Positions 3,500-43,573 of a DNA stretch of 64,000 nt are shown one piece after another. The notes beneath the pieces are model-generated. The model was not told the origin of the DNA. It searched no databases and worked only from the letters and a program-made list of their open reading frames with translations. The DNA comes from an uncultured bacterium (lineage in GTDB: Bacteria > Omnitrophota > Omnitrophia > Omnitrophales > CAZLUT01): contig CAZLUT010000001.1 of assembly GCA_964562805.1 (NCBI GenBank), forward strand, positions 32,574-96,573, in the 5' to 3' direction. Each line of letters opens with the position of its first letter. The stretch's first letter is position 1. Made by a program: the position numbers and the translations under genes.

Positions 3500-5155
3500 T
3501 TATTGAAATCTTGTATTTGTTTGTGCTTTGTGGTTTGGATCCCATTGTTTGTGTTTTGTGTTCTGTGTTTTGTGTTTTTTGAAAAAATCAGCAATCGTTT
3601 CTTGATTCTTAATATTCTCCCCAAACCACCCCCCTGTCATTCCGTCTATTTGAGAGGTGAGCTCTTCGATTCTAAGCCAAGATTCGAGAAGCTTTTTTTG
3701 TTCATGCGTTTTAACCAAAACATCTATCTGAAGGCGTCTTCTTTCATAATAAAGCCGAGTCACTTCAGAGACTAATTCATCTCTAAGCTCTACCATCAAT
3801 TTTTCACGCGAATCAATGCTGGTTTGAGAAGAGGAAAAAAGAAGGTCGCCCAAATCCCAGCTCAAATCAATATCCATATCATAATTCCAATCTTCAGGAC
3901 CAACAATATAAAGATCAGGATCTCTCGTGCCGCCGCGGTCAAGGTCAATGTTGTTACCCCGATTATTACCGACCGAATAGGAAACGGAGGGCAGAAGAGA
4001 CTTCAATCTAGAGAAGATTTGCCAGCTCTTAGTTTTTCCATTGGGTGTATTGGAATAACGAATGGCGGCTTCCTGAACCTCTCTCGCTTTTGGTTCGCTC
4101 GCAATCAGTTGATTTAACAATTTAATCAAATTTGATCCATAATGAAGCTCTTGCCTGATGGGTAAGGGATTTTCAGGTAGAGGAAGAGTGATTTTAACGA
4201 TTCCATCATCGGAACTTACCCAGAGCAGGCGTTTGAAATAAATTAAATCATGTATTTTGCCAAGGCTTTTCTCGGTTTTAAGCCTTTTCCATTCAGAATC
4301 GGCAAATCGATATACTCCCTTTTGTGTTCCGGCTATTAGGCCGGGGGGTGTGGTGAGAAGCTGAGTAATGCTGTCTGTTCGTAAACCTGAAGAGGGAAGC
4401 TTATAAAAGTGAAGTCCGCCGGTTTTACTCCCATAAACTCCGCGACTGGTTCCAACCCACACATTTTTTCCATCAGGACTCACTTCAAACGTCGAAAAAC
4501 TGCCTAAATTTTTTGACTCACTGAATTCTGTGCGATCATTTAACAATTCTGTTTCTTTTGGAATCGCACCGAGTAATTTTTCAAAACTAAGACCGCCATC
4601 TCTTGTTTTCCATAAGCTTCTATCAGTGAGAACAAAATAAATTTTTTTTGAAAGAGTCTTGATAGAAAACGGGATTTCTCCCGAAGGGAAGTGATCATTT
4701 TTTTTGAAAACCAATTGGTTTAAGTTTGCCGAAAACAATCCTTTTGTTGTCCCAAGGAAAATTATTTCCTCTTTAATTTTAAAAGTTTCAAGCCTGCCTT
4801 TTGCCGGAGTGGAATTAAAAATTTGCTTCCAGCGGACACCTAAATCTTCGCTGAGGTAGAGGTGCTTATTTGTTAAAAGAAGCAAATTATTGCCAATAAA
4901 TCCAATTCGCCTCATTTCTTGAGTAGCGGGAAGGCTAAAGACCTGCTTATGAAAATTAGTATTTTGTCGTGCAAGATATAGGTTTTTTGGGCTTAAAATT
5001 GCCAATTCCCCATCTTTGATTGGGAGAAGCTGAAGATAATAAGGCTCCTTTGTTCCCCAAGGGATGGTGGGAAGTAGAGCATTTTCTTGAGCAAAAGCGG
5101 GGAGCATTAAGAGAAAAAGAAAGATGATAAGAGGAAAAATGAAGTTTTTAAGCAT
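3500..5155 (-). CDS. Secreted BNR/Asp-box repeat (Ycf48-like beta-propeller) protein with a C-terminal coiled-coil region
   Basis: N-terminal signal peptide MLKNFIFPLIIFLFLLMLPAFAQE; several SxDxGxxW/F Asp-box repeats (SEDLGVRW, TRDGGLSF, SPDGKNVW, SKTGGLHF); C-terminal tail KHKTQNTKHK is read from the inverted repeat. Confidence 0.5.
   Translation of the reverse strand: MLKNFIFPLIIFLFLLMLPAFAQENALLPTIPWGTKEPYYLQLLPIKDGELAILSPKNLYLARQNTNFHKQVFSLPATQEMRRIGFIGNNLLLLTNKHLYLSEDLGVRWKQIFNSTPAKGRLETFKIKEEIIFLGTTKGLFSANLNQLVFKKNDHFPSGEIPFSIKTLSKKIYFVLTDRSLWKTRDGGLSFEKLLGAIPKETELLNDRTEFSESKNLGSFSTFEVSPDGKNVWVGTSRGVYGSKTGGLHFYKLPSSGLRTDSITQLLTTPPGLIAGTQKGVYRFADSEWKRLKTEKSLGKIHDLIYFKRLLWVSSDDGIVKITLPLPENPLPIRQELHYGSNLIKLLNQLIASEPKAREVQEAAIRYSNTPNGKTKSWQIFSRLKSLLPSVSYSVGNNRGNNIDLDRGGTRDPDLYIVGPEDWNYDMDIDLSWDLGDLLFSSSQTSIDSREKLMVELRDELVSEVTRLYYERRRLQIDVLVKTHEQKKLLESWLRIEELTSQIDGMTGGWFGENIKNQETIADFFKKHKTQNTKHKQWDPNHKAQTNTRFQ
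3548..3579. repeat. Inverted repeat, right arm
   Basis: Perfect 32-nt reverse-complement match to 3099-3130. Confidence 0.8.
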
Positions 5156-5260: not shown

Positions 5261-5360
5261 TCCATCAGGTACTTTTTTACAGTTAAAACATATATATAGG
5301 AAATAGAATAATATATAAGGGAGGGAGATTCTTTTTTATAGGAAAAGAATTTTTTTGCTT

Positions 5361-8300
5361 ATGAGGTTTTTATCAAACAATAAAGCGAGCCGTGCGCTCA
5401 CTATCTATTTTCTTATTTTTTGTTTTCTAGCTACATCAAACGCTGTAGCCAACCCGGCTTTTATTCAAGAGGAAACAATTTCCCCCAAAAAACAAACAAC
5501 AAAGGAAGAATTTTTAAGTGAGCTTAAATTAGTTGAATCGGATTTAACACAAAGCAGAAAAAGAGGCGAAAAAGATATTTTAATTTCTGGATTGGTTGAA
5601 CGCTCGCGAAAAATTGTTGGTGCAAAGGCCGCTAGCCTTGGTGAGGTGACGCCTCCTGAAGAGATTCCGCTGCTACATCCCGCCAACCTAGAAGAAATAA
5701 AAGAGCGACTTGAAAAAGAGCTGGAAGGTTATTTGAAACCAACTTTTTCTATCGCGCCGGATATTCCAGAAACCATATGGCTAGGCCTGTACTCAGGACA
5801 TCTTAGAGCCGTTCTTAATGAATTGCTTAAGAATTCCCGGGAGGCAGGCGCCACGCAAGTAAATTTAAATTTTCAGATGATTGACGGCAAGCTTATCATC
5901 AAAGCCCAAGATAATGGCGAAGGAGTGTCTTATGAATCTTTAAAAAAAGCTTTGCTTAAGGCCGCCCAGGAAGAACGGGTTATTAGAAACGAAGATGGAA
6001 TTCTTGAAGTTCCTTTTCCCCGTATTGCGGATGCAAAGCAAATCTTAACCACGGAAGAAGTTTTGGAGTTTATTAAGGAAAATGAAAAGCTGCTTCCTTT
6101 TATCTCGGGCCTTTCCGTAAAAGGAAGTTTTCGTGGCATGGGCATCGCTGCGAGTTGGCAGATTATTAAGCGTCATGGCGGAACAATGGATTATACGACA
6201 GGTCCCGAAGGAACAACTTTTACCATCCAATCACCGGTTTCGGTTAAAGCCAAGAGCCTTGGGAGTGATTTTGTTATAGATTCAGGAAGATCGTATTCGT
6301 TTAAGGATGTTGAGATCGAACAAAGGCAATATCCGGTCTCTTCTCCCGCATCTGTTGTTTTTCCAACGGTCATATTAGAAATTAATAATAGAGCCTACGA
6401 AGTTGGTGGCGAGAATTTTCTAGTTATCACGCTTGCCAACGGAAAAAAGATTTATTGGGGTGGGCAGCACAACCTTTCTTATTCTTTCTTTTTTGAAAAT
6501 TTTAAAGAAAAGGCCGCTGAGCTTATTGAAGCCGGCGGTGTCCTTTGGTTTCATATTGATAATCATGTTGATCTTGGTTCGTACGAAGAGGCAAATAGAC
6601 GTAGTTTAGACACAGGTGTTTGGCAAAAAGAAATTGAGCATGGATATGCCCATCTTAGTTTTGCCAATTACATGGGTTATCTTTTACAGACTAAGGTGGT
6701 TTCTGATTTGCACCGAGCCAGTTCACTCGAAGAGATTGTTGAAGGAAAATGGGCCATCGATTCTCCTTCGGTTGTAGATTTTGATGTCGATGTAATTTTG
6801 GATAATACAGGGAAAACCCGCCTTGGTCTTTTGGAGAAGGCAAAGCTCTTATCAATTTTTAATCAAGCAGATGTTGTTTTTATGACCAATAGTTCGGAGC
6901 TGAGCGCATTTAATCTGGGTGTGCCTTTACATATTGATCCACATCTAGCCATTTCAACTAATGCGAAATTTATACAAGAACTTGCACTCCAATCTAGCTT
7001 GGTGGCAGGTAAGAGTTTGGGAAAAGAGGAAAAGAAAGAAATTTCTTTTAGTGAGATTAATTGGAATCCATTTCGAAAATATGGTGATTGGGCTGGTTTC
7101 TTCCGGGGGCGAACTATTAATCAAGAGCTAGATGATATACAAGAAAAAGCCATGGCGCACCTCACGATGATGTATGAAACGGCTCTCAAAGAAGCAAAGT
7201 CTTTCGAGATGGAGGAGTTGCTTGAAGTGGCAAAAGATTCTGCTCGAGCAAAGATTGAAGGAATGATAGCTGTCCGGCGAGAGGGGGCCCTGGAAAATCG
7301 GCTGATGGACTTTGTCTTAAGACTTAATGGTTCGGGTGTTACTTTACAAACAAGAGAATTAGTTAAAAATTATCTCAAAGATTTTTGGGATAAGGCATCA
7401 GGGGTTTTGAGTGGCCGCGAGGTTTTTGAGCTAGAGGCTCAAAATGCGATTAGGAAAGCGTCTCGTCTCAAAGTGTTTCGTCCTATCCGAACTATATTGG
7501 TTGCTGAAGATGAGGAAGTTTATTTAAAAGATTACAAGAAGGTATTTGAGCGGCTTGGGAGAGACGATATCGATGTGCTTTATTTTCCAACCAGAAAAAA
7601 AGCAATAACTCATTTAAAAACTTTTGGCAAAGAGGTGGATCTTATCTTCGCAGACCGCTCGATGGTAGATGAAGAGGAATATAAGGAAAGATTGGTAGCT
7701 GGTCTTCCTGCTGATGTGGATGATGGCGGGCTTCTTATTGAAGAAGTTAGGAATAAATTAAACCTAAAAACCCCTGTAGTTTTTGTGAGCGGGTCAAGAT
7801 ATGGCCAAAACGAACTAGATCAATTTGGAAATGCAACTCAATTTTCTAAAGCATATCTGAATCCAGAACATTTGGGACGACTCGTTCAGGAATTGATTAA
7901 AATTCTGCCCGAAATTCCTGAGCCTCCTGATGTCGAAGGACTTATGTCCGCTGATAAGATCAAAACGCATAATGATTATTTGCTAGACCTTTTATCTTTT
8001 CTTGGCTCCTTGGACCGCTCTGAAATAACTACAAAAATTAATGAAAATTTGTCACCAGCATCATGGCAGGCATGGGTAGCGCATGATTTTAAAACCCCAA
8101 TTGGCGTAATTCTGCAGAATGTGCAATTAATTGAAGATTACAAGAAAAGCGATGAAGCTGTACCAATTAAAAATATTAAAAGAATCATAGAAAATTATCA
8201 GAAAATAAAGGATGCGCTGACTGTTATAGACCGGGCGGGTGAACCTATTCGCCCTGAATATTTTGATCGGCTAACTCATACTGGTAGCAAGAAAGATCCT

Positions 8301-19500: not shown

Positions 19501-22500
19501 ATTCTCAAACCTATCCGTGCCCGGCGGCAAGAGTCTTATTAATTTGCTGAAGCAATTTGGAATTTATGAGGATGCTGATACCGGCATTCAGGTGAATGAC
19601 CTTCGCGTGAATGAAATTGTTACTAATGATGAAAAAATCAATCAAATTATCCGTAAAGAAGGCGAGTTTGCTTCCCGTGCGAAGAGCTTGGGAGAAGAAA
19701 CAAAAATTTTCGAAGATTGGCTGGAAATGTGGAGCGAGATTTATGAAAGAAAATTAACTATTAATTTTAAACCGCCTGAATTTGAAGAATCTGGATTTCT
19801 TACTTTAGAAAATAGGCTTGGTAAGATGGCCGCAGAAATTCAGTATCGTTATTCAGTTAGAGACCCGGTGGCTGGCGATCTAATAACAATAATTGATCAA
19901 AGCACAGCAACAGATTACCAGAGAAAGAGAATCATGACTTTGATGCATTTATTTTTATTAGATTATTACCCCAAAGTTCGAACTGTTGAATTTGATGGAC
20001 TTTCTGATCATGGTGAAAGTCTTGCGGAAACATTAAAGCAATTTGGAATTTATTATCCTATTGGCGATAAATTTCAAGTGGTTGGGCGTCGTTTGGATGA
20101 AATCGTTGCTTTTAACGAAAATATCAAACAAATCATCGCGAAAGAAGGTGAATTTGTTTCGCGCGGAAAAAGTTTGGGTAGAGGAATGGAGTTTGTCGAT
20201 CCTAAGTACCTCACCTTGAGCCCAGAATTAAGAAGAACAAAAGATTTTAATTTTAAACTTTTAAATGAATTATCTGAGACAGAGAGAGAAGAATTGATAC
20301 AGCTTATCATGGGATTTCTGGAGGTCAAAGGTAAGATCGGCAGAATAAAAGCCATGCGGCGATTAAGTAAATTTAAGGCCCCACGCTCCTTTGAGGTCGT
20401 GGCCTTCAAGAACAATGAAGCAGTTGGTTATACCAACGCTTATTTTACGGATCAAATTTTTATTCCTAGAGAAGTATATATTACTGATATTTATGTTAAA
20501 GAGGGCGAGGCTTATCGTAGACACCGTATTGGTACAAATCTTTTTAATATTACCAAAGAGCATGCAAGAAACATTGGAGCTCAGGAGCTTATAGTTAGCG
20601 GCATTAGACAAAAATCAGAAGCCCAAGATTTTTGGAAGAAAATAGCTGAACAAAATCCGGATACTAACATCCAATATTATGGGCCTTTAAAGAAGATTTC
20701 TCGGATCGGATTGGATTTAACAAGAAACCTCCCCTCGATACCGGATGCTGAAGGATTGCCGGCTTTTGAGAAAATCGGAGCTTATGTGAACTTTGTCATG
20801 AAATTAGTGTCTGCTATTGGGAAAATTGATCAGAAGCTAACTCTTTATTTTGAAGCGAGCCCCAAGCCGCTTCCCGAGGCATGGGTGGATTGGGCAGGAC
20901 ATACTGTAAAAGAAGATTTGAGCTCTGTAGCTACCTGGCATGATGGGTTTGATACCTTATATTCGGCCGCTGCAAGGAAGAAGGAATTTAAAGAAGATCC
21001 CCGTATTCTTAATTACGTAGACAAATATATTGATTCTTTTAAAAGTTATTTTGCCCCAATCAAGAGGCTAGCTAGGGGGCATCCTTCTGATTATACGGCT
21101 GGCCTTACAAAGAAGGGTGATGAGACAGAGCCGGTTGATCGCACGCAATTGGCACGCTATTTCGCAAGAGATCTTTTTATTAATCATCCTGATGCCGAAA
21201 GCAACTGGCAGTTTTTTCAAGCCGCGGTCAGCAGCGTTGATGAAACTCTCGTCAAATTAAAATCCGCAATCAAAGAACTTGAGGAGGAGGTAGGGGCAAG
21301 AAGCTTGGGCGAAGAGGGAGTTTTGTTTCCTTCCAAAGATTTTTCAAAATACGGGATATCCGAAACTGATTCACGTTTTAACGCTATGATGCGGCCGCAG
21401 CAGATCGCCTTTTTCATGCTAATGAAACGGATGCTTAATCTTCCACCGAGAAGCATGGGCATCTATGAAGCGTCTTTTTCTGATATTTCATCTTTGTTGC
21501 TTGCGACTAATTTAGATAATGTCATCATGGTGGACAGCACTTCTTTTCACGACCCATCAAAACGACCTGATTTTTGGAGAGATAAAAAAGATGGTTTTTT
21601 ATCAAATAAGAAAATTTTCGGCTTTCTCCCAACAGAATTTTTAAAACAATATGGTGTCTATGAGGACGTAGAGCATCCTCTTATGTGGGAACTTAGTGCT
21701 ATTGGAGCAACTAATATTCGCGTTAAAAAGTATCTTAATTATAAAAACGCGTATGTGATTAACTTTTATTGGGCATATCACAATGAGGCCCCTCGCCCTC
21801 GCAAGATAATATTTTTTGAAAATACAAATACTGCGGAAGAATCTAAAAATAGGGACCTTTTATATAAGTTTTATGGCTACTATAAGGATAAAGTGAAGGT
21901 AGCTTTTTACAGAAATTCAGAAGCAATCGCGACTTCATTTCCGTTAACAGAAGCTAAAGCGCACTTTCAAAAATTGCGAGAGATATTCCCTGGCAACACT
22001 TTATTTGTGTCTAACTTTGATTTTGCCTCTTATTACGACGGCTACAAAAACAATAATCTTTTTATGGGACCAACCCCAAGGGAAAACCTGACTTCCGTTC
22101 GAGGCTTTTTAAAAGAGTTTGATGTGCAATATGGTCTGGACCCTGAGAGGGACCCTGAAGAGCTGTATATCAGCACACCGCGTTTAATAGTTGGCCAAAG
22201 CCTTGGAGAAGAGGAGATAGTTCAGCGAGTAATGTCTAATATCGGAGAATCCGAAGAGCCTTTTTACGGCATGCTTCCCGCGTCACTTCTTGAGGAATTG
22301 GCTGAAAGCGAAGGTAAGGACGTTCTAAAACAGCAGATGGAATATTTGATCGGAAACAAGGCGAATCATATTGTTATTCTGTGGGATACAGATATTCCGC
22401 GCTTTGAAAGAAATGAGTGGCTGGATAAATTGGGACTTGGTGCGCTTGGTAGCAAAAAGAATTTTATCACAACTCCTCTAAAAGCAAAGATAGATGAAAA

Positions 22501-22813
22501 GGCGCTTCAGGATCAAATAAAAGAAACTCTAAAAATATTGCTTTCAAGAGGCGTTGAAACTCGTGCAATTGGGCTGCTAAAACCATTTGATGAGCAATTT
22601 AAAGTTGATGCCCATTCATTAAAATCCAAATCACCGCAAGCGCTTCTTCTCCTGCATTACTTAGTGCAGATTGACGGTGATCTTGCGCAAGATCTGTTAA
22701 GAATCTTTTCGATTGATCCCAAGACAGGGGATTATCTGGCAGAACTCTCGAATCATCTCGAACGCCTCTTCCAAGAAGCCCGCGCTGCAGAAGCGGTGCG
22801 TAAAGCAGCGTAG
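13583..22813 (+). CDS. Giant secreted multi-module protein 2 (3076 aa), a mosaic paralogue of protein 1. Contains a receiver-like domain, a GNAT domain, two internal tandem duplications, twelve KSLG-type linkers and a conserved C-terminal module
   Basis: - The ATG overlaps the upstream stop (TAATG at 13581-13585).
- Signal peptide ...LIFCFLTTTIAVASP.
- REC-like domain 17690-18040.
- GNAT motif YRRHRIGTNLF around 20500.
- The C-terminal approximately 200 aa align with the C-terminus of protein 1 (…LHYL[IV]QIDGDL[SA]QDLLRIF…DPKTGD[FY][IL]AEL). Confidence 0.8.
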   Translation: MLSVVSKYKTFLAFIIYPLIFCFLTTTIAVASPISQIKTDTISAEKQTQERDFLEEIRQVAEELAESKEREEEIVSIGEIVEKVRGSEDQRIKAMRKEAIDRTRKVLEVTGKSWVAPSLPAVAGTEHRELSVTGKSLGRTKRHALISQAARDMPSFMKDRAKMVQRLYESIDSEEAKRILLRPDVLPVFLGIKSAYLTYDRDPLIGPLSEKVSEASEEFHDLGLVFSERYVISIDYLFDRFEKEGDFLVKEKIISKDELESFIKSGPTQETMNSIDGLLDQYHGDVPGRTILHGFLMGYPLREIIFAARSEKTWEGFVSEYGLHVVSPGTERINRLLSGWDIGTHFGYLTLSNEPDFEEMMEPSALRVFKTIEGKSLGTDEILVKLKSARRINENAREYGEMTYQEAIEVMKSLPDGLWRVEDKGELLNIFNVILATLDKAEETIFEAGGASLFYIHCTSRLEEVLGRLPQEDREAKRLELLDLVNTYINPVGEISQKAAALIKAVEGSTDRYPSSFDEPDASYDELLPKLISLVKSIHPNEDSRLDPYNIKIKALETIDAIVHSGFISDFREIIKFLLAELKKIDDPRNIRTSLVEAIAGVLISILYKQNNLKYEYGGIDQATNVNWALRRTLGAEGGRGTISLFEAFGSFGDVNKIVKRLSQNFEKATTQKQKEKALKAAVKEIDAYGEFLQNEYEISRVLDLLEFGFDKKLSKDQKLNKALHKISNVKSFREALKDLLDSVTLPDKLSNLGTGLFKVLSSIIQDFTEKALLTDDSKELKTILRNTIQKMEEYQNFLAAKVAREEGLEEEAEGKKRAPPEEEIFRAEAKSMGAAYLMVAIKSEPALAIKENFEIVLEEIHDASPRSAREALEAIPFFIKANPKLATKEVLKNILNRLFLGYWDDEPLKPDSSVYLITPNIFILRSFYAADRKLFNNELFEIVKKSADDSNKDAVDMALPFFASNMFGIDIDFETLRPLELAISEIFALIGKEVFVSEESTKHLESILISLSEQLAVTEDEVERGKIILDTFNKMLELQEFMKLQKARARGTLRAEDEKKEVSEDEIFRETPSLSAEAGAMRPAPRVTGKSLGAAYLIDAIKSEPSLAVEANFKKVLKEIQNPEHKEARKALRAIPFFIKANPKLATKKALRNILMKLFWGYWFYGKPSAVDQPIYLVKPNLYVLRSFYEADRKLFDDELYEIVKKIAHDTQRDIEDVVAAVLPFFISSMFGIDIDFETFKHLERAISQTLEILGNEVFVSEESTRHLRSIIISFSEQLAAIEDEAEQEQIVLDTFGKVLELQDFLKAKKERAKGLELGVEGKERTPPEDEIFREAPRAEAKSLGMEDEIIKVIQEALHVKIERHIRTKLIAEDDEDIQKIYKRAFEQLARDDITVLYFPHRRAAINYLRDYGDEVDLIFADRAMDDRDEIDERIKERLPLDIDDGTLLVKQARSRLNLNIPVIFISSTIYNQDELDQFGNATQLPKQYLDATTLEHLIQKLIQILPELPEPPSVEELTPAERMQAHIQYLRELFEFLGPLKKSTIKVIKKKALQSTTWYSWLSHGFQNELLSIEISMRRARARKERGQTISSDTLRNLKESYEKMERSFVIVDRLTRPYRPEYLAMLTETGSEASPIPHPKLPLYFSKAVFEDHPNEANNRKIFQATAPIIDSTLKKLGEAVDEYVREAGGAPGVTAASLGGIADIISPEEAAPLRMELEEGLIDDKARLNYPIQQILLHQDIQQKNKEIAWLIKVRADHFPILSQHVDELIRFVNDNPDWMPSNGLELLIFRLFAGHSYSDLNRESLAAFDEALPPVVRLLRNFDIKNLVKRGVTTDREIYPLKVSSYFINDASEIRKLGKTAQDIIKRAEAKSLGEETQIFEDWLKAWGDVYGEKLAINFEPAPLGGLGFFGLKDEAGEKVAGIFYSYLNENLIKIGLQSTADNYRRKRLMTLVHLFLLNYHPKVTAVEFSNLSVPGGKSLINLLKQFGIYEDADTGIQVNDLRVNEIVTNDEKINQIIRKEGEFASRAKSLGEETKIFEDWLEMWSEIYERKLTINFKPPEFEESGFLTLENRLGKMAAEIQYRYSVRDPVAGDLITIIDQSTATDYQRKRIMTLMHLFLLDYYPKVRTVEFDGLSDHGESLAETLKQFGIYYPIGDKFQVVGRRLDEIVAFNENIKQIIAKEGEFVSRGKSLGRGMEFVDPKYLTLSPELRRTKDFNFKLLNELSETEREELIQLIMGFLEVKGKIGRIKAMRRLSKFKAPRSFEVVAFKNNEAVGYTNAYFTDQIFIPREVYITDIYVKEGEAYRRHRIGTNLFNITKEHARNIGAQELIVSGIRQKSEAQDFWKKIAEQNPDTNIQYYGPLKKISRIGLDLTRNLPSIPDAEGLPAFEKIGAYVNFVMKLVSAIGKIDQKLTLYFEASPKPLPEAWVDWAGHTVKEDLSSVATWHDGFDTLYSAAARKKEFKEDPRILNYVDKYIDSFKSYFAPIKRLARGHPSDYTAGLTKKGDETEPVDRTQLARYFARDLFINHPDAESNWQFFQAAVSSVDETLVKLKSAIKELEEEVGARSLGEEGVLFPSKDFSKYGISETDSRFNAMMRPQQIAFFMLMKRMLNLPPRSMGIYEASFSDISSLLLATNLDNVIMVDSTSFHDPSKRPDFWRDKKDGFLSNKKIFGFLPTEFLKQYGVYEDVEHPLMWELSAIGATNIRVKKYLNYKNAYVINFYWAYHNEAPRPRKIIFFENTNTAEESKNRDLLYKFYGYYKDKVKVAFYRNSEAIATSFPLTEAKAHFQKLREIFPGNTLFVSNFDFASYYDGYKNNNLFMGPTPRENLTSVRGFLKEFDVQYGLDPERDPEELYISTPRLIVGQSLGEEEIVQRVMSNIGESEEPFYGMLPASLLEELAESEGKDVLKQQMEYLIGNKANHIVILWDTDIPRFERNEWLDKLGLGALGSKKNFITTPLKAKIDEKALQDQIKETLKILLSRGVETRAIGLLKPFDEQFKVDAHSLKSKSPQALLLLHYLVQIDGDLAQDLLRIFSIDPKTGDYLAELSNHLERLFQEARAAEAVRKAA
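16064..17620 (+). repeat. Intragenic tandem duplication in giant gene 2 (two units of about 780 nt, each about 260 aa; roughly 65-70% aa identity by eye)
   Basis: Unit 1 at 16064-16843 (AEAKSMGAAYLMVAIKSEPALA...IPFFIKANPKLATK...FGIDIDFET...) parallels unit 2 at 16844-17620 (VTGKSLGAAYLIDAIKSEPSLA...IPFFIKANPKLATK...FGIDIDFET...). Confidence 0.8.
19199..20164 (+). repeat. Second intragenic tandem duplication in giant gene 2 (two units of about 160 aa)
   Basis: 19199-19678 (AEAKSLGEETQIFEDWLKAW...YRRKRLMTLVHLFLLNYHPKV...LKQFGIY...) parallels 19679-20164 (RAKSLGEETKIFEDWLEMW...YQRKRIMTLMHLFLLDYYPKV...LKQFGIY...). Confidence 0.8.
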
Positions 22814-37314: not shown

Positions 37315-37977
37315 ATGAAACATTTCCATCAAATCATTTTATTAGTTTTAGTAAGTTTACTTCTAATTCCGCAAATTGCCGGAGCCAAAGAATCGACACC
37401 GGGTGACGCACCTGAGCTTGTTATTGCTGATTTTGATTCGGGAAAAAAACCCAATAATGTTGGCGGTGACTTTGGATCTTGGAATTACGCTCCTCGGGAT
37501 GAAACTCAAGGATGTTGGGACTGGTTTGAACCTACCAATTTCAATGACGTTGAAGGCTATAGCGTGATTATGGAGTATGACGTTAAATCTCCTAATCCCG
37601 CGTTTTGCGGTTTATGGATGAAGCTTAAAAATGTAGATGTTTCACCCTATGATGTTTTAAGCCTGTGGCTTAAAGGCGACGAAAAAACAGGATTTACAAC
37701 GCGTTTCAAGATAGAAATGAGAAATAAACGCGGGAAACGTGCCGTTTATACCGTTAGCGGAGTTGATAATACCTGGCAGAATTTCAAAATTCCTTTTAAG
37801 AAAACTCGGGCTATTAATGATTGGAGTCAGATACAAGAAATGACTGTTGTATTTGATGATATTATGGCGACTAAAAAAGTGGGGCAGATTCTTTTAGATC
37901 AAATTAGTTTCAGGAAATATACCCCCGAAGAATTAAAGGCCCAAAAAGAAGCGCTAGCCAAGAACGCTGCCGCATAA
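37315..37977 (+). CDS. Secreted protein, function unknown; paralogous module shared with the next gene
   Basis: Signal peptide; the C-terminal block WQNFKIPFK...DWSQIQEMTVVFDD...ILLDQISF recurs in 37978-39984. Confidence 0.45.
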   Translation: MKHFHQIILLVLVSLLLIPQIAGAKESTPGDAPELVIADFDSGKKPNNVGGDFGSWNYAPRDETQGCWDWFEPTNFNDVEGYSVIMEYDVKSPNPAFCGLWMKLKNVDVSPYDVLSLWLKGDEKTGFTTRFKIEMRNKRGKRAVYTVSGVDNTWQNFKIPFKKTRAINDWSQIQEMTVVFDDIMATKKVGQILLDQISFRKYTPEELKAQKEALAKNAAA

Positions 37978-39984
37978 ATGAAACTTAAGGTTCTCGCTGT
38001 CAGCCTTTTGGCTGTAGCGAATTTAGTTTTTCTCTCAAGTGATATCGAGGCCGGCCAAGCGCCTCAAAAACTTAAAGAGACGCGTTACCAGCCGAGAGTT
38101 TTAAAACAGCCGACGCATCAAAACCGGGTTCTTCTCGTCGACAATTTTAATTATCCCAATATGATGAATTTGCTCGGAGGAGAAACCCAGGGCGATGAAG
38201 AAGAGCCGGGCGGACTCATTCCTTCCTACACACCCAGTGGCCGTTTAACGATGGGGGAAGCCGGACATTCTCTAAAAATGGATTACAACGTGGCGATACC
38301 CATGGCTATTGCCTATTATTGGACACGTCTTGGCCCTGTGGATTCGGAGGTTGTGGGAGCAACTTTTCCGATTGATCTAGAAGGTTTCAACTATCTTTCT
38401 TTTTGGATAAAAACCGACCGAGAATATCCTCGTTTTGCCATCGAATTTCACCAGGATGTCAATAATGACCATATCTTCACTCTTGGAAAGGATACCAATA
38501 ATAAGATTGCTGTTTCCAGCTTTATTCTCTCGCCGGCCGAAAAAATCGCGGGAGGCGCTGCTGAAGTTATCGTTGATGTTAAGGATAAAAGAATTTTAGT
38601 TGAGAGTCGTAAAAAGAAGAAACCTAAAGTTGAAGAAGAGCTAAAACCGCAAGAGGAGGAGAAGGAAGAAGATGTTATTGAGACAGCGTCATTGAGCGAA
38701 ACGCCCGATGAGGCGGGAGAAATGATAGAGGTAATGTCTCCGCCAATTCTTCCAGGAGGAGAGGTTCTAAAAGAAGAAAAAACACAAACCACAGAGCGCA
38801 AAACACAAGAAGTAGCTGCAAAAGAACCGGAGATTCAAGAAGTTAAAGAGCTGGAGGAGAAGAAGGAAGAAACTGCGAAAGAGGCAGAGCCGGAGAAAAT
38901 GGAAGAGAAGCAAGAAAAAGCAGACGCCGAGCCAAAAAAAGAAGAAAAGCCGGAAGATATAAGCGGCAAGGTTAAAGAAGAAGAGAAAACGGTTGAAGCG
39001 ATGAAGAGACAAAAACCTAGCTCATTGTTGCGGCTGAAGAAATATAAGCGACGCTCCAGAAAAAGAGTCACTTTCTTTCACACCGAAGGTCCGGCTACTT
39101 CGCCCGAAAAGGAAGTTAGCAGAAGGGAACTTGAAGTATCCAGACGAAAAGCGCCCAAAAAGAGAGCGGTGGAGATTGAAGTAGGCAGCACGGTTGTTTC
39201 GAGGGCTGTTGTTACAACTGTTTTGGGAAAAGGAACTTCAATTCAGGCGCCTACTCAAATTAGAGCTATGCGTAAAAAAGATTTGTCCTGGCGAAAAGTA
39301 GTGGTGCCTTTAAGCCGATTTCGCGGCATTACGGATTGGTCCAAAATTTTAGAAATGATTTTTCTTTTTAGTGATCAATTAGCTTCTGATCAGGGCATTA
39401 TCTATGTTGACGATATTCTTTTTGGAACGAACTATATGCATCCGAAACCTGAAAAAGTACGTGCACCAAAAATAGAATTTTTAAAATTTGCTAAACTCAA
39501 GGAAAACATTTCTCCCGCGGTTATACGGGGCATTCAGATGGCAAGCCGTAAGGAGGAAAACCAGGCTGTCCACAAAGTATCCGAGGAAGCTCTCATGGCG
39601 CGGGATGTGAGCGGAGATCTCCTTAAAGCTCAACTTAATTCAAGAGAGAAAATAATAAACTTTTTTAAAACAGAAGACGCTGAGAATTTTATTGATGGAG
39701 CGCGTCTCCCCAACACTTTTTTGCTCTATTTTAAGACAAGTGTTACTGACCCCACCTTAGAAACAATTCGTGTTGAAACAAGCCAGGACGAGGGGGTAAC
39801 GTGGAGTATTATTTCAAACCTTTATTCTCACCAAGAGGATGGGGTCTATATCTTTCCGTGGAGGCTTCCATCAACCGGGGCGGGTGAATCAATCTTATTT
39901 CGCTTAAATGCCGCTGATATTTGGGGGAGGGCGGCTGTTATGGGAGAACCTATTAAGTTTCAAGTTGGAGGTGCCAGTGAGTAG
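37978..39984 (+). CDS. Secreted protein with two beta-sandwich-like modules flanking a highly charged E/K-rich low-complexity region
   Basis: Start overlaps the upstream stop (TAAATG); signal peptide; E/K-rich segment about 38600-39180; module DWSKILEMIFLFSDQ...IYVDDILFG. Confidence 0.45.
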   Translation: MKLKVLAVSLLAVANLVFLSSDIEAGQAPQKLKETRYQPRVLKQPTHQNRVLLVDNFNYPNMMNLLGGETQGDEEEPGGLIPSYTPSGRLTMGEAGHSLKMDYNVAIPMAIAYYWTRLGPVDSEVVGATFPIDLEGFNYLSFWIKTDREYPRFAIEFHQDVNNDHIFTLGKDTNNKIAVSSFILSPAEKIAGGAAEVIVDVKDKRILVESRKKKKPKVEEELKPQEEEKEEDVIETASLSETPDEAGEMIEVMSPPILPGGEVLKEEKTQTTERKTQEVAAKEPEIQEVKELEEKKEETAKEAEPEKMEEKQEKADAEPKKEEKPEDISGKVKEEEKTVEAMKRQKPSSLLRLKKYKRRSRKRVTFFHTEGPATSPEKEVSRRELEVSRRKAPKKRAVEIEVGSTVVSRAVVTTVLGKGTSIQAPTQIRAMRKKDLSWRKVVVPLSRFRGITDWSKILEMIFLFSDQLASDQGIIYVDDILFGTNYMHPKPEKVRAPKIEFLKFAKLKENISPAVIRGIQMASRKEENQAVHKVSEEALMARDVSGDLLKAQLNSREKIINFFKTEDAENFIDGARLPNTFLLYFKTSVTDPTLETIRVETSQDEGVTWSIISNLYSHQEDGVYIFPWRLPSTGAGESILFRLNAADIWGRAAVMGEPIKFQVGGASE

Positions 39985-41320
39985 TAATTTAGATCATGCT
40001 TACGATGAATATTTAGCCACTAATGATAAAGCGGCCGTTAAGGCGTTAGGCAATTTTGCCAAGGAACTTCACAACTCTGATATTAGATTCGGCCGTTCTA
40101 CCTTGCCCACCTATTTTAAACCGCATTTTTTGAAAGAAAAGCAGGAGCGTTTAATTAAACACGCGACCGGCGGTATGGTTAAGATCATGAATAAGGTAAT
40201 TGATCTTTATATCAATGAGCCTCATCTAAGAAAACAATTTGAAATTGATCCTGAAATTGAACAGTGGCTTTTAATGGACCCCGGCTACAAGCAATCTGTG
40301 GTATTTTCAAGAATTGACGGTTTTATTGAGGGTGAGGCTTTAAAATTCGTAGAGTTTAACACCGACTCTCCGGCGGGTGCCGCCTACGCGGATACGATTG
40401 GCGGATTGATTACTTCGCAAGAGGAAACACAGCCTTTTTTTAAAGATCACCATCTCAAATGGGATCACCGGGTGAAAAAAATCCTAGAGGGATTGCTGCA
40501 TGCCTATGAAGAGTTTGGAGGTAGTGAGAAACCGCAAATCGGAATTATTGATTGGCGGACCGTAAGAACCCACCCCGAGTTTCAAATTATTAAAACCTAT
40601 TTTGAAGAAAAAGGTTACAAAACGACCGTTGCGGACCCTAGAGAATTAAATTTTAAGCACGGGAAGCTTTATCATGAAAATTTCCGCATCGACCTTGTTT
40701 ATCGAAGAGCTATTTTTAATGAATTGATGGCCAAGATGGACGAAGTGGAAGATTTTCTAAAAGCCTACAAAGAACGTGCGGTATGTGTTGTGAATCCGTT
40801 CCGTTCTAAAATTGCGGGCACAAAGGCAATTCTTTGTTTTTTATCAAATCCTGCTTATGAACGGTTTTTTACTCCAAAAGAAAATGAGCTCAAACGGGAA
40901 TTTATTCCGTGGACACGTCAGCTGATGGATGCTGAGCGTTTTTACGGAGAGAAAAAGGTCTTTTTAATTGATTTTTTGAAGGATGAAAAAGATTTTCTTG
41001 TCTTAAAACCCGGTGATAGTTATGACGCTAAAGATGTTTTTGTCGGACGTGAAACGAGGGAAGAAGACTGGAATTACGCCTTGGATAAGGCCTTGAAAGA
41101 AAATTGGGTATTTCAAGAGTTTATTAATGTTCCTATTATGAGTGTCCCGGAAGTCGTCAATGAACGGCTTGATTTTATCTATAAAAAAGTAAGTATCGGT
41201 CTTTATACAAGCGGCGGAAAATATTCGGGCGCCATGTCGAGACTTTGCGATGATGCAATCATTAGCGTTGCTCACGGGGCCAGTCTTATTCCGTGTGTGG
41301 TAGTGGAAGAAGAGAGGTAG
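39977..41320 (+). CDS. Glutathionylspermidine-synthase-like ATP-grasp amide ligase (YgiC/YjfC family)
   Basis: Pre-ATP-grasp motif KFVEFNTDSPAG (compare EYNADTPT of GspS). GTG start at 39977 with a GGAGG box 6 nt upstream chosen over the ORF-track start at 39908, which overlaps the previous gene. Confidence 0.45.
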   Translation: MSSNLDHAYDEYLATNDKAAVKALGNFAKELHNSDIRFGRSTLPTYFKPHFLKEKQERLIKHATGGMVKIMNKVIDLYINEPHLRKQFEIDPEIEQWLLMDPGYKQSVVFSRIDGFIEGEALKFVEFNTDSPAGAAYADTIGGLITSQEETQPFFKDHHLKWDHRVKKILEGLLHAYEEFGGSEKPQIGIIDWRTVRTHPEFQIIKTYFEEKGYKTTVADPRELNFKHGKLYHENFRIDLVYRRAIFNELMAKMDEVEDFLKAYKERAVCVVNPFRSKIAGTKAILCFLSNPAYERFFTPKENELKREFIPWTRQLMDAERFYGEKKVFLIDFLKDEKDFLVLKPGDSYDAKDVFVGRETREEDWNYALDKALKENWVFQEFINVPIMSVPEVVNERLDFIYKKVSIGLYTSGGKYSGAMSRLCDDAIISVAHGASLIPCVVVEEER

Positions 41321-41834: not shown

Positions 41835-42386
41835 ATGAATTTAGTTCCTAAAAAAATTTTTCTGACAAAAGGTGTCGGAATTGACCGGCACAAGCTTAAT
41901 AGCCTTGAGCTGGCACTTCGCCACGCGCAAATCGCCTGTTATAACATTGTGCGGGTTTCGAGCATTTTACCCCCTCATTGTAATCGGGTTACTCTTGGTA
42001 AAGGACTCAAGTATTTGAAGCCGGGGCAGATCGTTTTTGCGGTCATGGCTGAGTCATCCACAAACGAACCAAACCGTTTGGTAGCAGCCAGCGTAGGGGT
42101 CGCAATACCCGCCAACCGCAGTCAATATGGCTACCTTTCAGAACATCATTCATCCGGTCAAACGCAAGGAAAAGCTGGGGATTATGCCGAAGATATGGCA
42201 GCGGGCATGCTTGCTACGACGCTGGGCGTAAAATTTGATCCCGAGGCCAGTTATGACGAAAAAAAAGAAATTTGGAAAATTAGCGATTCAATCGTCAGAA
42301 CATCGGAAATGACCCAGTCAGCCGAAGGAAATAAAAATGGTCTTTGGACTACTGTTGTTGCCGCCGCCGTTTTTTGCGACTACTAG
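41835..42386 (+). CDS. pdaD: Pyruvoyl-dependent arginine decarboxylase
   Basis: Size about 180 aa; VSSILPP self-cleavage site (Ser-Ser) in the conserved position; overall PvlArgDC-like sequence. Confidence 0.65.
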   Translation: MNLVPKKIFLTKGVGIDRHKLNSLELALRHAQIACYNIVRVSSILPPHCNRVTLGKGLKYLKPGQIVFAVMAESSTNEPNRLVAASVGVAIPANRSQYGYLSEHHSSGQTQGKAGDYAEDMAAGMLATTLGVKFDPEASYDEKKEIWKISDSIVRTSEMTQSAEGNKNGLWTTVVAAAVFCDY

Positions 42387-42395
42387 CCCTAGCTT

Positions 42396-42425
42396 CTAAC
42401 CACTATCAACTAACCACTAGTTAGT
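42396..42425. repeat. Intergenic repeat family copy D (CTAACCACTATCAACTAACCACTAGTTAGT)
   Basis: Two ACCACTA units between convergent pdaD and the minus-strand lipoprotein gene. Confidence 0.55.
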
Positions 42426-43359
42426 TCACTGTTTCGATAATCACGCCATCCGGCATTTTATAATAAAACATTTTTTCGGGAGCGAAGGAATTAAGAGATA
42501 GCTGCTTGATCTTGATTTCGGTTGTTTGATTTTTATCAAATTGCTTAAATTTAATCTGTCTTGGAAACGAGAGGTACATCTCGTAGCGAAAATCGTTTCT
42601 TAGAAATTCTACCTTTGGAATTCCTTGTTTTGAATAATGAACTTCTTTTTCAACCATCGCGTTAGTTCGGTTGATCCAAAGCCGGCGCTTTAAGACTTTA
42701 AGCTCCTTGGATTGATCAAACACGGATAACAAATAATAAGGACTTTCAACTTCTCTCATTTCCGCAACCTCATTTTTTAAGAGAGGTTTTGACACAAAAG
42801 AGCCTTCCACTAATATAGGATCTAATTGCATTTCAAAGCCCCTTAAAAATTTTTCGTAAGAAACTTTTCCCGTATAAACTGTGTTGTAGCGAGGGACGTA
42901 AAACCAGAATTCGGGATAATTCATTGTGAGAGTGAAGAAATTAGGCACAAGCTCTTTGTAGCCCTGGACTACTAATCGCCCCGGTTTTTTGTAAGTTACG
43001 CGAGCCAGGCAATTTTGGTTCGGGCTCGCCTCGGGGCCTAAAAAAACAAGATCAGCAGTTAATTTTAAACTTCGAAATTCAGAATAATCTCTTCTGATCT
43101 TCTCCAAAATTTTTTCCTTGGATAAGACCAACAGCTTGCTTGATTTTACTGTTTTTTCAGTTCCTTCTTGAACGGAAACTGAAGAGTTTATTATGCCCAG
43201 GGGAAGGATATCTTCTTTAGATAGACAGCCAGCTTGAGACAAACAACCTACTCCTATTAGAATAATGAGTGTCAAATTAAACAAACGTTTCAACAGACCC
43301 CGCTCCTGTAGTTGATCGATTATATAACAGTTTTTACTCGTCAACATCACTTGTTGCAT
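42421..43359 (-). CDS. Putative lipoprotein, function unknown
   Basis: Hydrophobic signal region ending in a lipobox-like LSQAGC. The ORF track extends to 43437 through a GC-rich structured leader, so an internal ATG start is preferred (start uncertain). Confidence 0.4.
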   Translation of the reverse strand: MQQVMLTSKNCYIIDQLQERGLLKRLFNLTLIILIGVGCLSQAGCLSKEDILPLGIINSSVSVQEGTEKTVKSSKLLVLSKEKILEKIRRDYSEFRSLKLTADLVFLGPEASPNQNCLARVTYKKPGRLVVQGYKELVPNFFTLTMNYPEFWFYVPRYNTVYTGKVSYEKFLRGFEMQLDPILVEGSFVSKPLLKNEVAEMREVESPYYLLSVFDQSKELKVLKRRLWINRTNAMVEKEVHYSKQGIPKVEFLRNDFRYEMYLSFPRQIKFKQFDKNQTTEIKIKQLSLNSFAPEKMFYYKMPDGVIIETVN

Positions 43360-43573
43360 ATTAATAAGTATTCTCTCTCTCATTTCGGGAGAGGCTTGCC
43401 CCGCACCCTTGTGGTATGGGGGTCGGGGTGAGGGCACAATGATACCTGTCCCCTAATAGGTGATAGTCACCCTTTAAACAATTACTGTTGTGAAAATGGG
43501 GGCACTTTAATTTTCAAGGCGTCCCTATTATCTTCATTATTTTGACTTTGAGAGAAGCTTAAGCTGTGCTACG

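Follow-up and report, generated by a model that had tools for sequence, protein, structure and literature searches.

A short peptide motif marks the module boundaries of two giant Omnitrophota proteins and is replaced by other motifs in related giants

Giant proteins are a hallmark of the Omnitrophota, and two of them, encoded by the adjacent open reading frames (ORFs) A and B, lie in the window analyzed here, a stretch of 64,000 nucleotides (nt) from an uncultured member of the Omnitrophales (assembly GCA_964562805.1, contig CAZLUT010000001.1, positions 32,574 to 96,573 of the forward strand). The two proteins are chains of dissimilar modules, and the boundaries between these modules carry a common motif of eight residues, [V/I/A]-x-[G/A]-K-S-L-G-E, with KSLG at its centre, in 22 of 22 cases. 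Comparison of codons indicates that the motif is kept as a peptide and not as a string of nucleotides, with the decisive evidence coming from other lineages, and in related giants the same types of module are bounded by quite different motifs, a family-level pattern of lineage-specific junctions that is new here. We propose, as a reading that we judge to be evenly balanced between right and wrong, that ORFs A and B encode exported polyproteins that would be cut at the junction motif by an endopeptidase acting in trans.

The exact tetrapeptide KSLG occurs in frame ten times in ORF A and seven times in ORF B, whereas amino-acid composition predicts 0.19 copies in the 5818 residues of the two proteins (Poisson P = 1e-27 for the 17 seen), and the remaining frames and genes of the window hold only four scattered copies. 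Five near-variants stand at equivalent places, namely KSMG (16073), RSLG (21299), QSLG (22196) and ASLG (5631 and 18680), giving the 22 junctions that a preliminary description of this DNA had counted (Table 1); RSMG at 21449, around which the flanking pattern is absent, is probably a chance occurrence. Numbering outwards from KSLG, position -3 is Val in ten copies, Ala in five, Ile in four, Ser in two and Thr in one, and position -1 is Gly in 12 and Ala in ten. The Lys is present in 18 copies (Ala in two, Arg and Gln in one each), the Ser and Gly in all 22 and the Leu in 21 (Met in one), followed by Glu at +1 in 12 copies and by Glu (nine) or Asp (four) at +2. The invariant core is S-L-G with a Gly or Ala two residues upstream of the Ser, and the Lys is the least constrained residue of the tetrapeptide.

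That the KSLG core is written with different codons in different copies had been the starting observation of the preliminary description, and all ten of the codon strings quoted there are present in the sequence. Some of its coordinates are exact and six are off by 1-2 nt: the copies placed at 6253, 10780, 11371, 12223, 13984 and 14704 begin at 6252, 10782, 11370, 12225, 13985 and 14705. The 17 exact copies comprise 14 distinct 12-mers, with a mean pairwise nucleotide identity of 0.70 in the core, 0.40 at the third positions of the core and 0.28 in the flanks. Aligned as DNA repeats, the junction copies are 72-92% identical over only 24-33 nt, so that near-identity is absent, and the modules that they separate include old paralogues of 27-59% amino-acid identity; the earlier conclusion that the copies do not stem from a recent DNA repeat expansion thus stands. 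The switches of Ser between AGY and TCG and of Leu among TTG, CTT and TTA are likewise real, but codon usage is not random. At the 17 exact copies, Ser is encoded by AGY 13 times, by TCG four times and never by TCT, TCC or TCA (0/17, against about 55% expected), while Leu is TTG ten times, CTT six times and TTA once (TTG plus CTT 16/17, against about 50% expected); Lys and Gly codons match background usage. Because TCG is paired with CTT in all four TCG junctions, and because three of these four (12225, 13985 and 16853) share 30-67 nt of homologous upstream DNA (repeat families D12 and D14), the Ser switch probably represents one event that was copied with junction-containing DNA, and not repeated independent switches. 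The codon diversity inside this genome is therefore partly inherited, through a TCG-CTT sub-lineage.

Two further comparisons bear on the level at which the motif is conserved. The fraction of copies using the same codon is about 0.40 at junction positions (K 0.51, S 0.35, L 0.44, G 0.28) against 0.54 at conserved residues of paralogous modules, between which synonymous sites are likewise not saturated. Since synonymous conservation is no higher at the junctions than in the modules, there is no sign of an extra nucleotide constraint, which argues for selection on the peptide. In five homologues from other lineages and other samples, with a GC content of 0.44-0.61, [G/A]-x-S-L-G stands directly before a shared C-terminal module, and its S-L-G is written TCA TTG, TCG CTG, TCT CTT, TCT CTG, or AGT/AGC with TTA, CTG, TTG or CTT; the Ser and Leu codon bias seen within the genome vanishes across lineages. 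The motif is thus conserved in relatives with differing codons, in support of the purifying selection that the preliminary description had claimed. No close orthologues suited to an estimate of nonsynonymous to synonymous substitution rates (dN/dS) were found in the collections, the sole other contig with ORF A (L004) being identical in nucleotides.

These homologues were found by searching 1.84 billion representative proteins in HMMER, with the C-terminal module as query; of the 12 proteins returned, ten are other than ORFs A and B. With the three shortest hits left out of the count, [G/A]-x-S-L-G precedes the module in all six proteins with a retrieved junction region (P0008, P0010, P0011, P0012, P0013 and P0014), and the cores of the homologues at this place read ASLG, SSLG, RSLG, ASLG and RSLG. 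In protein P0015 an unrelated N-terminus precedes the C-terminal half of the module alone, and there is no SLG. An alignment of the module (A1) scanned over genome and metagenome contigs gave no relative, and a word-index search with it gave just two fragments. One of the six, P0012 (1554 amino acids), has the junctions FSLG, KSLG, HSLG and RSLG; we rejected it as an orthologue, since it shares its source sample with the window and its contig (L001) has a tetranucleotide signature equal to the within-window value (r = 0.988 between L001 and the window; r = 0.984 between 22.9-43 kb and 43-64 kb of the window). Probably the genome of the window encodes P0012 as a third paralogue, with its gene lying between ruvA and ruvB on L001 (JGI 3300009008, Ga0115649_1000081; 10001-14665); a suggestion that its first module is TIKI/ChaN-like found no support. 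In contig L021 (nt 4468-4482) one junction has a stop codon in frame where K or R would stand (G-TGA-S-L-G); as coverage of this contig is 1.97x and its giant ORF is divided among many small gene calls, a read error is the probable cause.

When ORF A, ORF B and module A02 were used as queries, the searches retrieved Omnitrophota giants of roughly 2,300 to more than 6,900 amino acids (a range based on ORFs that are complete or of sufficient length), which use junction motifs of other dialects. The motif (D)KPF[AS]PDM[AV]K(E) occurs eight times in P0002 (contig L017) and six times in L005, EKP[EQ][AS]PDM six times in P0006, and RSE[VMLIT]R five times in each of L006 and L014 and 14 times in P0018. 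In the 6550 amino acids of L013 the pattern [AS]SSP[VAL], which also admits SSSL, has 21 matches, and SSSP alone is seen 13 times against 0.13 expected. Modules of the same type are found between these different motifs: the arginase-like module sits between KSLG junctions here, between KPFAPDM junctions in P0002 and L005 and between ASSS[LP] in L013, with RSEMR or RSEVR on its upstream side, the only side retrieved, in L006 and L014, and the module type of A05 and B01, bounded by KSLG in ORFs A and B, has R[SA]EMR at its borders in P0018. Codons vary among the RSEMR copies as well (CGC/CGT/CGG; TCC/TCG/AGC/AGT). Identical module types with a lineage-specific boundary motif are what would be expected of a site that co-evolves with its recogniser, and the pattern argues for a recognition element rather than a passive spacer, as had been suggested for KSLG from this one locus. 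Homology of the C-terminal modules between dialects was considered and dropped, the hhalign E-values of 0.09 and 0.23 not being significant.

Several details of these junctions may be added. Double junctions, 11-35 residues apart, are present in every dialect (P0018, L013 and P0014 among them). The double junction of ORF A (window 10698-10793) encloses a mini-segment of 28 residues, AEERAEAMRQEAIDRTRKVLEITG, that is homologous to residues 89-111 of B, where the homologue is followed by a decayed junction, KSWV, and then by a good junction 23 residues further on; the 61 nt before the decayed junction at 13916 are 84% identical to those before the junction at 10782 (family D13; window 13860-13996), the second-highest DNA identity among the listed repeat families. 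In the KPFAPDM dialect (P0002 on L017, 10001-19426, and L005) the residues after P-D are M-A-K-E, M-A-K-D or M-V-K-E, resembling native N-termini, which would fit either a cut at D|M or relic start codons. Giants often come in tandem pairs, as in the window, L016 and L017. In L016 (1-24196), giants of >3331 and 4731 amino acids lie 7 nt apart, and their Cmk, CoaD, CoaE, NUDIX and epimerase-type modules have RSE[VM]R at the boundaries; the upstream giant is without the usual ...AA ending and the downstream one without an N-terminal hydrophobic helix, and a stop codon or a sequencing error may have divided what is a single ORF of more than 9,000 amino acids.

Cutting ORFs A and B at the motif yields segments of mostly 160-485 residues, among which are the paralogous pairs A03/B05, A05/B01, A06/A10, A08/B09, A11/B12, B03/B04 and B07/B08. 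In five of these seven (A05/B01, A06/A10, A11/B12, B03/B04 and B07/B08) the BLAST alignment starts at the first residue after the junction, and in the closest pairs it reaches to within a few residues of the next junction, so the unit of duplication runs from junction to junction. In a Pfam analysis of the modules of both ORFs no recognisable domain spans a junction; the HATPase_c match of a GHKL ATPase covers residues 149-295 of A, and the junction follows at 300, five residues past the end of the match. Other segments hold a receiver and HisKA-like unit (A03 and B05), a class-I methyltransferase closest to PRMT/PrmA (A04), GNAT folds (B07, B08 and B09) and helical modules. They represent unrelated enzyme types that are normally separate, often oligomeric proteins. 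Module A02 is common to many Omnitrophota giants, where other junction motifs flank it. Its AlphaFold model, built from an alignment of five homologues, has a predicted local distance difference test score (pLDDT) of 66, and Foldseek gives weak but consistent matches to agmatinase, arginase and proclavaminate amidinohydrolase (E about 1e-3, template modelling score 0.3-0.4), in agreement with its conserved HxDxHxD and DxDxD motifs. The C-terminal module is modelled as an alpha/beta domain (pLDDT 84, predicted template modelling score 0.84) and has no significant neighbour among PDB structures; the junction before it (FASGKEPVTAKSLGEGEDTE, A10/A11), the one junction that AlphaFold renders confidently readable, is coil with a pLDDT of 45-66.

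The termini and the composition of the two proteins would fit export. Each N-terminal hydrophobic helix ends like a signal-peptidase site, in AVA|NP (A) or AVA|SP (B), and the two segments may be cleaved signal peptides; B has one further marginal hydrophobic stretch (residues 1216-1238, with charged residues inside), away from the junctions. An A[NS]P motif is also present in B, in P0002 and P0006 and in the giant that lies upstream in L017. There, as in A, the N-terminal hydrophobic helix runs into a conserved [V/W]-A-[N/S]-(D)-P, in the forms AVANP, AVASP, VWANPD or AWSDPD (window 5361-5460 and 13583-13690; P0002, P0006, L017), which may be a family-specific sorting or cleavage signal. Cys is nearly absent, with one in the 2742 residues of A and two in the 3076 of B (three in 5818), two of the three inside the N-terminal helix (...LIFCFL...), and none in the 1554 residues of P0012, against 0.99% in the other ORFs of the window. 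Related giants are mostly poor in Cys as well (0.16-0.5%), P0005 with 1.7% being an exception. Depletion of Cys is typical of proteins that cross the envelope unfolded, and on this general ground we read it as a sign of export. At the other end, many of the giants share the ending [R/K/x]-[S/A]-A (window 13563-13580 and 22793-22810; P0002, P0003, P0010-P0015, P0018, L005, L007, L010 and L014), written ARAA and RKAA here and AKAA, LRSA, LKSA, LRAA, TIAA, AVAA or KSAA elsewhere, across dialects, and between dialects this ending is all that the C-terminal modules visibly have in common; it may be a C-terminal mark that is recognised, for instance by a PDZ-type protease or in secretion.

Based on these observations we can offer a rough proposal, in which export, cleavage, the position of the cut and the cognate protease are what we infer. 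Each giant would be made as a single chain with one N-terminal Sec-type signal and then exported, after which a sequence-specific endopeptidase supplied in trans would cut at the junctions and release roughly 22 proteins, each of some 160-480 residues, including a GHKL ATPase, an arginase-fold hydrolase, receiver/HisKA-like units, a PRMT/PrmA-like methyltransferase, GNATs and helical modules. By analogy, the scissile bond would most likely be L|G, because S-L-G-E-[E/D] matches the mapped sites of cysteine protease domains; a cut after the [G/A] is the alternative. A motif that lies at the boundaries of unrelated folds and in modelled coil, that is conserved as a peptide and that is swapped between lineages bears the signature of a co-evolving reader, and the commonest reader of sites between modules is an endopeptidase. 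A processed, exported precursor is favored by the combination of modules that are normally separate enzymes, a single N-terminal helix and near-absent Cys. It is quite possible, although we would stop short of calling the chances even, that Omnitrophota use true polyproteins as a chromosomal expression strategy, with recognition sites that diverged along with dedicated proteases.

Several points weigh against this proposal. No protease domain was found in A, B, P0012 or their neighbors by Pfam (E<=1), NCBIfam, a PDB sequence search or two AlphaFold models, a negative result limited by the many modules of A and B that still lack a known fold. Near-absent Cys excludes a C80 or C39 protease in cis, and with none detected in cis or nearby, any protease would have to act in trans; a comparison of 13 related loci showed no adjoining gene that is kept. 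In the A02 model (pLDDT 66) the C-terminal junction runs on as a helix, and a repeated linear motif in disordered linkers looks equally like a docking or modification site. As to export, P0018 is without an N-terminal signal helix and carries CoaD, CoaE and an epimerase, and housekeeping-type enzymes (CoaD, CoaE, phosphoglucomutase) are found in P0018 and P0004, so export is not general in the wider family and the 'secreted effector' part of the proposal is weakened. The 'processing site' part is not, since CoaD/CoaE-type enzymes are normally oligomeric and would have all the more need of release from the chain.

The alternative that we take most seriously, as possible though doubtful, is that the motif is never cut and serves as a docking peptide or as a site of modification (phosphorylation or glycosylation of the Ser), with the chain remaining an intact multi-enzyme scaffold. 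Conservation, location in coil and the lineage-specific swap fit this equally well, the double junctions could raise avidity, and a 2026 survey of Omnitrophota treats multi-enzyme giants as single polypeptides, with cleavage unmentioned (bioRxiv 10.64898/2026.06.07.730766). However, most KPFAPDMAK copies contain no Ser, Thr or Tyr, which makes a general Ser-modification chemistry impossible; enzymes that are normally oligomeric (GNAT, methyltransferase and arginase folds, and CoaD/CoaE in P0018) would be tethered within three to five thousand residues; and no candidate partner has been identified. That the motif is a structural or folding boundary, such as a hinge or helix cap or perhaps a site of translational pausing, read by no trans-acting recogniser, we regard as improbable. 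Small residues followed by an acidic run do make a typical flexible linker, and the biased Ser and Leu codons (AGY/TCG only; TTG/CTT in 16/17) could hint at an effect at the codon level, but a generic hinge needs no S-L-G invariant over 22 copies and five other lineages, its wholesale exchange for KPFAPDMAK, RSEMR or ASSSP in sister lineages would be unexpected, and the codon bias, gone across lineages, is explained by shared descent.

It is very improbable that the peptide is a by-product of a constraint on DNA or RNA, be it microhomology used in module shuffling or gene conversion, an internal translation start or a recoding signal. The duplication of whole junction-to-junction units, the DNA repeat families that the junctions form, with upstream DNA shared by the TCG-CTT subtype, and the presence of TTGG in 16 of 17 cores, TTG being able to serve as a start codon, all speak for such a constraint; it is largely refuted by third positions that are only 0.40 identical and by homologues that write S-L-G with entirely different nucleotides, and Gly and Lys codons at background and synonymous conservation below that of paralogous-module residues also speak against it. 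Internal translation starts in particular were rejected, since six copies have CTT and others CTC or TTA, none of which can initiate. Hardly credible, finally, is an intrinsic module motif, whether a G-x-S-x-G nucleophile elbow, a Walker-A-like loop or a phosphopantetheine attachment site: G-x-S-x-G fits 12 of the 22 copies and P0012 has GHSLG, but the first position is Ala in the other ten, the site lies between unrelated folds and, where modelled, in coil, no copy coincides with a Pfam match to an alpha/beta-hydrolase, P-loop or carrier protein, and there is neither a Gly five residues upstream, as in Walker A, nor an Asp before the Ser, as in carrier proteins.

Other ways of dividing the chain were also considered and rejected. 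There is no 2A-like sequence that would cause skipping, and autoproteolysis by an N-O shift at Ser founders on the KPFAPDMAK dialect, which has no nucleophile. The junctions conform to the AXA rule of signal peptidase I in all 22 copies, both at -3 (V/A/I/S/T) and at -1 (G/A) relative to the Lys, but no hydrophobic h-region lies directly upstream and the invariant S-L-G would be left unexplained. For a double-glycine site of a C39 peptidase, the residue before the [G/A] is T, E, K, A or R and not Gly, and no C39 domain is present.

ORF A ends and ORF B begins in an overlapping TAATG (window 13581-13585), which suggests translational coupling. Their neighbors are ordinary chromosomal genes (an ABC transporter, rlmN, ychF, mlaEFD, icd, mdh, purH, mnmE and others), and their nearest database relatives are giant proteins from metagenome-assembled genomes of Candidatus Omnitrophota. 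The protein of ORF A (P0001) recurs identically on a JGI contig and on an independently assembled contig of the European Nucleotide Archive (L004), the latter agreeing with the window gene in every nucleotide, so ORF A is no assembly artefact. The organism is present in the samples JGI 3300009008 and ENA ERZ23498639. Upstream of it, on the minus strand (3500-5155), lies a gene for a protein of 551 residues, which matches Sortilin/BNR repeats faintly and contains a single KSLG by chance (EKSLGK); the same gene is called at 471 residues in the otherwise identical L004, the DNA upstream of ORF A has no fixed-offset alignment, and an indel between the two is likely. Elsewhere in the window, three consecutive ORFs of 220, 668 and 470 amino acids (37315-41320, plus strand) and one of 338 (42421-43437, minus strand) have no Pfam match at E<=1e-5, and a gene for a pyruvoyl-dependent arginine decarboxylase (41835-42386) adjoins them.

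Table 1. Giant ORFs, termini, selected modules and junctions, in window coordinates; hyphens set off the core tetrapeptide, and its codons are given in parentheses (aa, amino acids)
Feature	Position	Strand	Description
ORF A	5355..13583	+	2742 aa; gene caller's start is the ATG at 5361; 12 segments (A00-A11), 11 junctions
ORF B	13583..22813	+	3076 aa; 11 junctions
N-terminal signal-like segment of A	5361..5450	+	MRFLSNNKASRALTIYFLIFCFLATSNAVA|NP; sole hydrophobic helix of the protein
N-terminal signal-like segment of B	13583..13675	+	...LIFCFLTTTIAVA|SP
Module A02	6264..7010	+	arginase/ureohydrolase-like fold; HxDxHxD and DxDxD motifs; highly conserved stretch ITLANGKKIYWGGQHN
Module A11 (C-terminal)	12966..13580	+	alpha/beta; ends ...EIARAA
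Module B12 (C-terminal)	22208..22810	+	51% identical to A11; ends ...AVRKAA
Junction A00/A01	5631..5642	+	GAKA-ASLG-EV (GCT AGC CTT GGT)
Junction A01/A02	6252..6263	+	VKA-KSLG-S (AAG AGC CTT GGG)
Junction A02/A03	7011..7022	+	VAG-KSLG-K (AAG AGT TTG GGA)
Junction A03/A04	8466..8477	+	VTA-KSLG-E (AAG AGT TTG GGT)
Junction A04/A05	9249..9260	+	TKG-KSLG-ED (AAA AGT TTA GGA)
Junction A05/A06	10005..10016	+	IEG-KSLG-EE (AAA AGT TTG GGC)
Junction A06/A07	10698..10709	+	ATG-KSLG-AE (AAA AGT TTG GGA); first of double junction, 28 aa apart
Junction A07/A08	10782..10793	+	ITG-KSLG-E (AAA TCG CTT GGT)
Junction A08/A09	11370..11381	+	VAG-KSLG-EEE (AAA AGC TTG GGA)
Junction A09/A10	12225..12236	+	VAG-KSLG-ED (AAA TCG CTT GGT)
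Junction A10/A11	12954..12965	+	VTA-KSLG-EGED (AAA AGT TTG GGT)
Decayed junction in B00	13916..13927	+	VTG-KSWV (AAA TCT TGG GTA)
Junction B00/B01	13985..13996	+	VTG-KSLG-R (AAG TCG CTT GGC)
Junction B01/B02	14705..14716	+	IEG-KSLG-TDE (AAA AGT CTT GGA)
Junction B02/B03	16073..16084	+	AEA-KSMG-A (AAG AGT ATG GGT)
Junction B03/B04	16853..16864	+	VTG-KSLG-A (AAG TCG CTT GGT)
Junction B04/B05	17609..17620	+	AEA-KSLG-MED (AAA AGT TTG GGG)
Junction B05/B06	18680..18691	+	VTA-ASLG-G (GCC AGC CTC GGT)
Junction B06/B07	19208..19219	+	AEA-KSLG-EE (AAA AGC TTG GGA)
Junction B07/B08	19682..19693	+	SRA-KSLG-EE (AAG AGC TTG GGA)
Junction B08/B09	20168..20179	+	SRG-KSLG-R (AAA AGT TTG GGT)
Junction B09/B10	21299..21310	+	VGA-RSLG-EE (AGA AGC TTG GGC)
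Junction B11/B12	22196..22207	+	IVG-QSLG-EEE (CAA AGC CTT GGA)

Whether Omnitrophota giants act whole or cut is an explicit open question, and the boundary motif makes it testable, as it predicts fragments together with their sizes and termini. It also lets giants be split into units for structure prediction, and its dialect is a phylogenetic signal that could be compared with the protease families of complete genomes in search of the processing enzyme. If the polyprotein reading is true, the junction motifs mark the cleavage points of multi-enzyme giants, and no polyprotein system known to us in cellular organisms would be as extensive; if the motif is a docking site instead, it still defines how the multi-enzyme chains are organized.

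Within the phylum, a survey of long Omnitrophota proteins distinguishes a 'multi-enzyme metabolic cluster' class (bioRxiv 10.64898/2026.06.07.730766), which has the same repertoire as ORFs A and B (methyltransferase, HATPase_c, GNAT, receiver) and, as here, repeats that are old and not recent DNA expansions. Judged by phylum and domain content, ORFs A and B appear to be small members of this class, the surveys covering proteins of at least 10,000 amino acids (10.64898/2026.06.07.730766; West-Roberts et al., 10.1101/2023.11.21.568195) and ours having 2742 and 3076. Words beginning cleav-, linker, junction and polyprotein are absent from the text of the 2026 survey (bioRxiv 10.64898/2026.06.07.730766), and West-Roberts et al. 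(2023; bioRxiv 10.1101/2023.11.21.568195) noted that information on cleavage points is lacking. An incomplete full-text library yielded no literature on polyproteins, junction motifs or dialects in Omnitrophota/Omnitrophica.

Among processed precursors of other bacteria, the gingipain/adhesin precursors of Porphyromonas gingivalis and the adhesins P97/P102 of Mesomycoplasma hyopneumoniae (S/T-X-F|X-D/E) are exported and cut at a recurrent motif in disordered regions; they have few adhesin or protease domains, other motifs and no homology to the present proteins, with their dozen or so unrelated enzyme modules. In viral polyproteins (picornavirus 3C, coronavirus Mpro, potyvirus NIa) unrelated proteins are joined in one chain with the same short site at each boundary, the sites differ by lineage and co-vary with the protease, and short spacer peptides lie between tandem sites. 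A recurrent site at each boundary is found here in 22 of 22 cases, with lineage-specific equivalents in relatives. Viral chains usually contain the cognate protease, whereas none was detected in the chains of ORFs A and B or in their neighborhood, and the latter are chromosomal bacterial genes among housekeeping genes whose processing is a proposal.

The closest resemblance in the site itself is to MARTX and the large clostridial toxins TcdA and TcdB, which are giant secreted proteins with several unrelated effector modules, a layout that ORFs A and B would share. The processing sites mapped for their cysteine protease domain, which is activated by inositol hexakisphosphate, include EGSL|GED in TcdB and LHAL|GET in MARTXVc, with a consensus of small-Leu-small in unstructured segments between effectors (PMC2900308). 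The sequence [G/A]KSL-GE[ED] closely resembles both (PMC2900308), and small-Leu-small describes the junctions here, as S-L-G in 21 of 22 and S-M-G in one, in coil where modelled. Unlike these toxins, which carry a catalytic Cys-His protease domain in cis and have one to four mapped sites each (Table 1 of PMC2900308), ORFs A and B have no Peptidase_C80 match in Pfam at E<=1, almost no Cys and 11 sites each. They also lack Pfam matches to the RTX repeats of MARTX (RTX or HemolysinCabind) and any other Pfam match to these toxins, the annotated ORFs of the window (through 58626) include no type-1 secretion genes, and an N-terminal signal-like helix takes the place of the C-terminal type-1 signal. 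There is no sequence homology to the toxins, and the host is an environmental Omnitrophota bacterium and not an animal pathogen. By analogy, the system would work most like the MARTX and large clostridial toxins and the viral polyproteins, while being a member of neither group.

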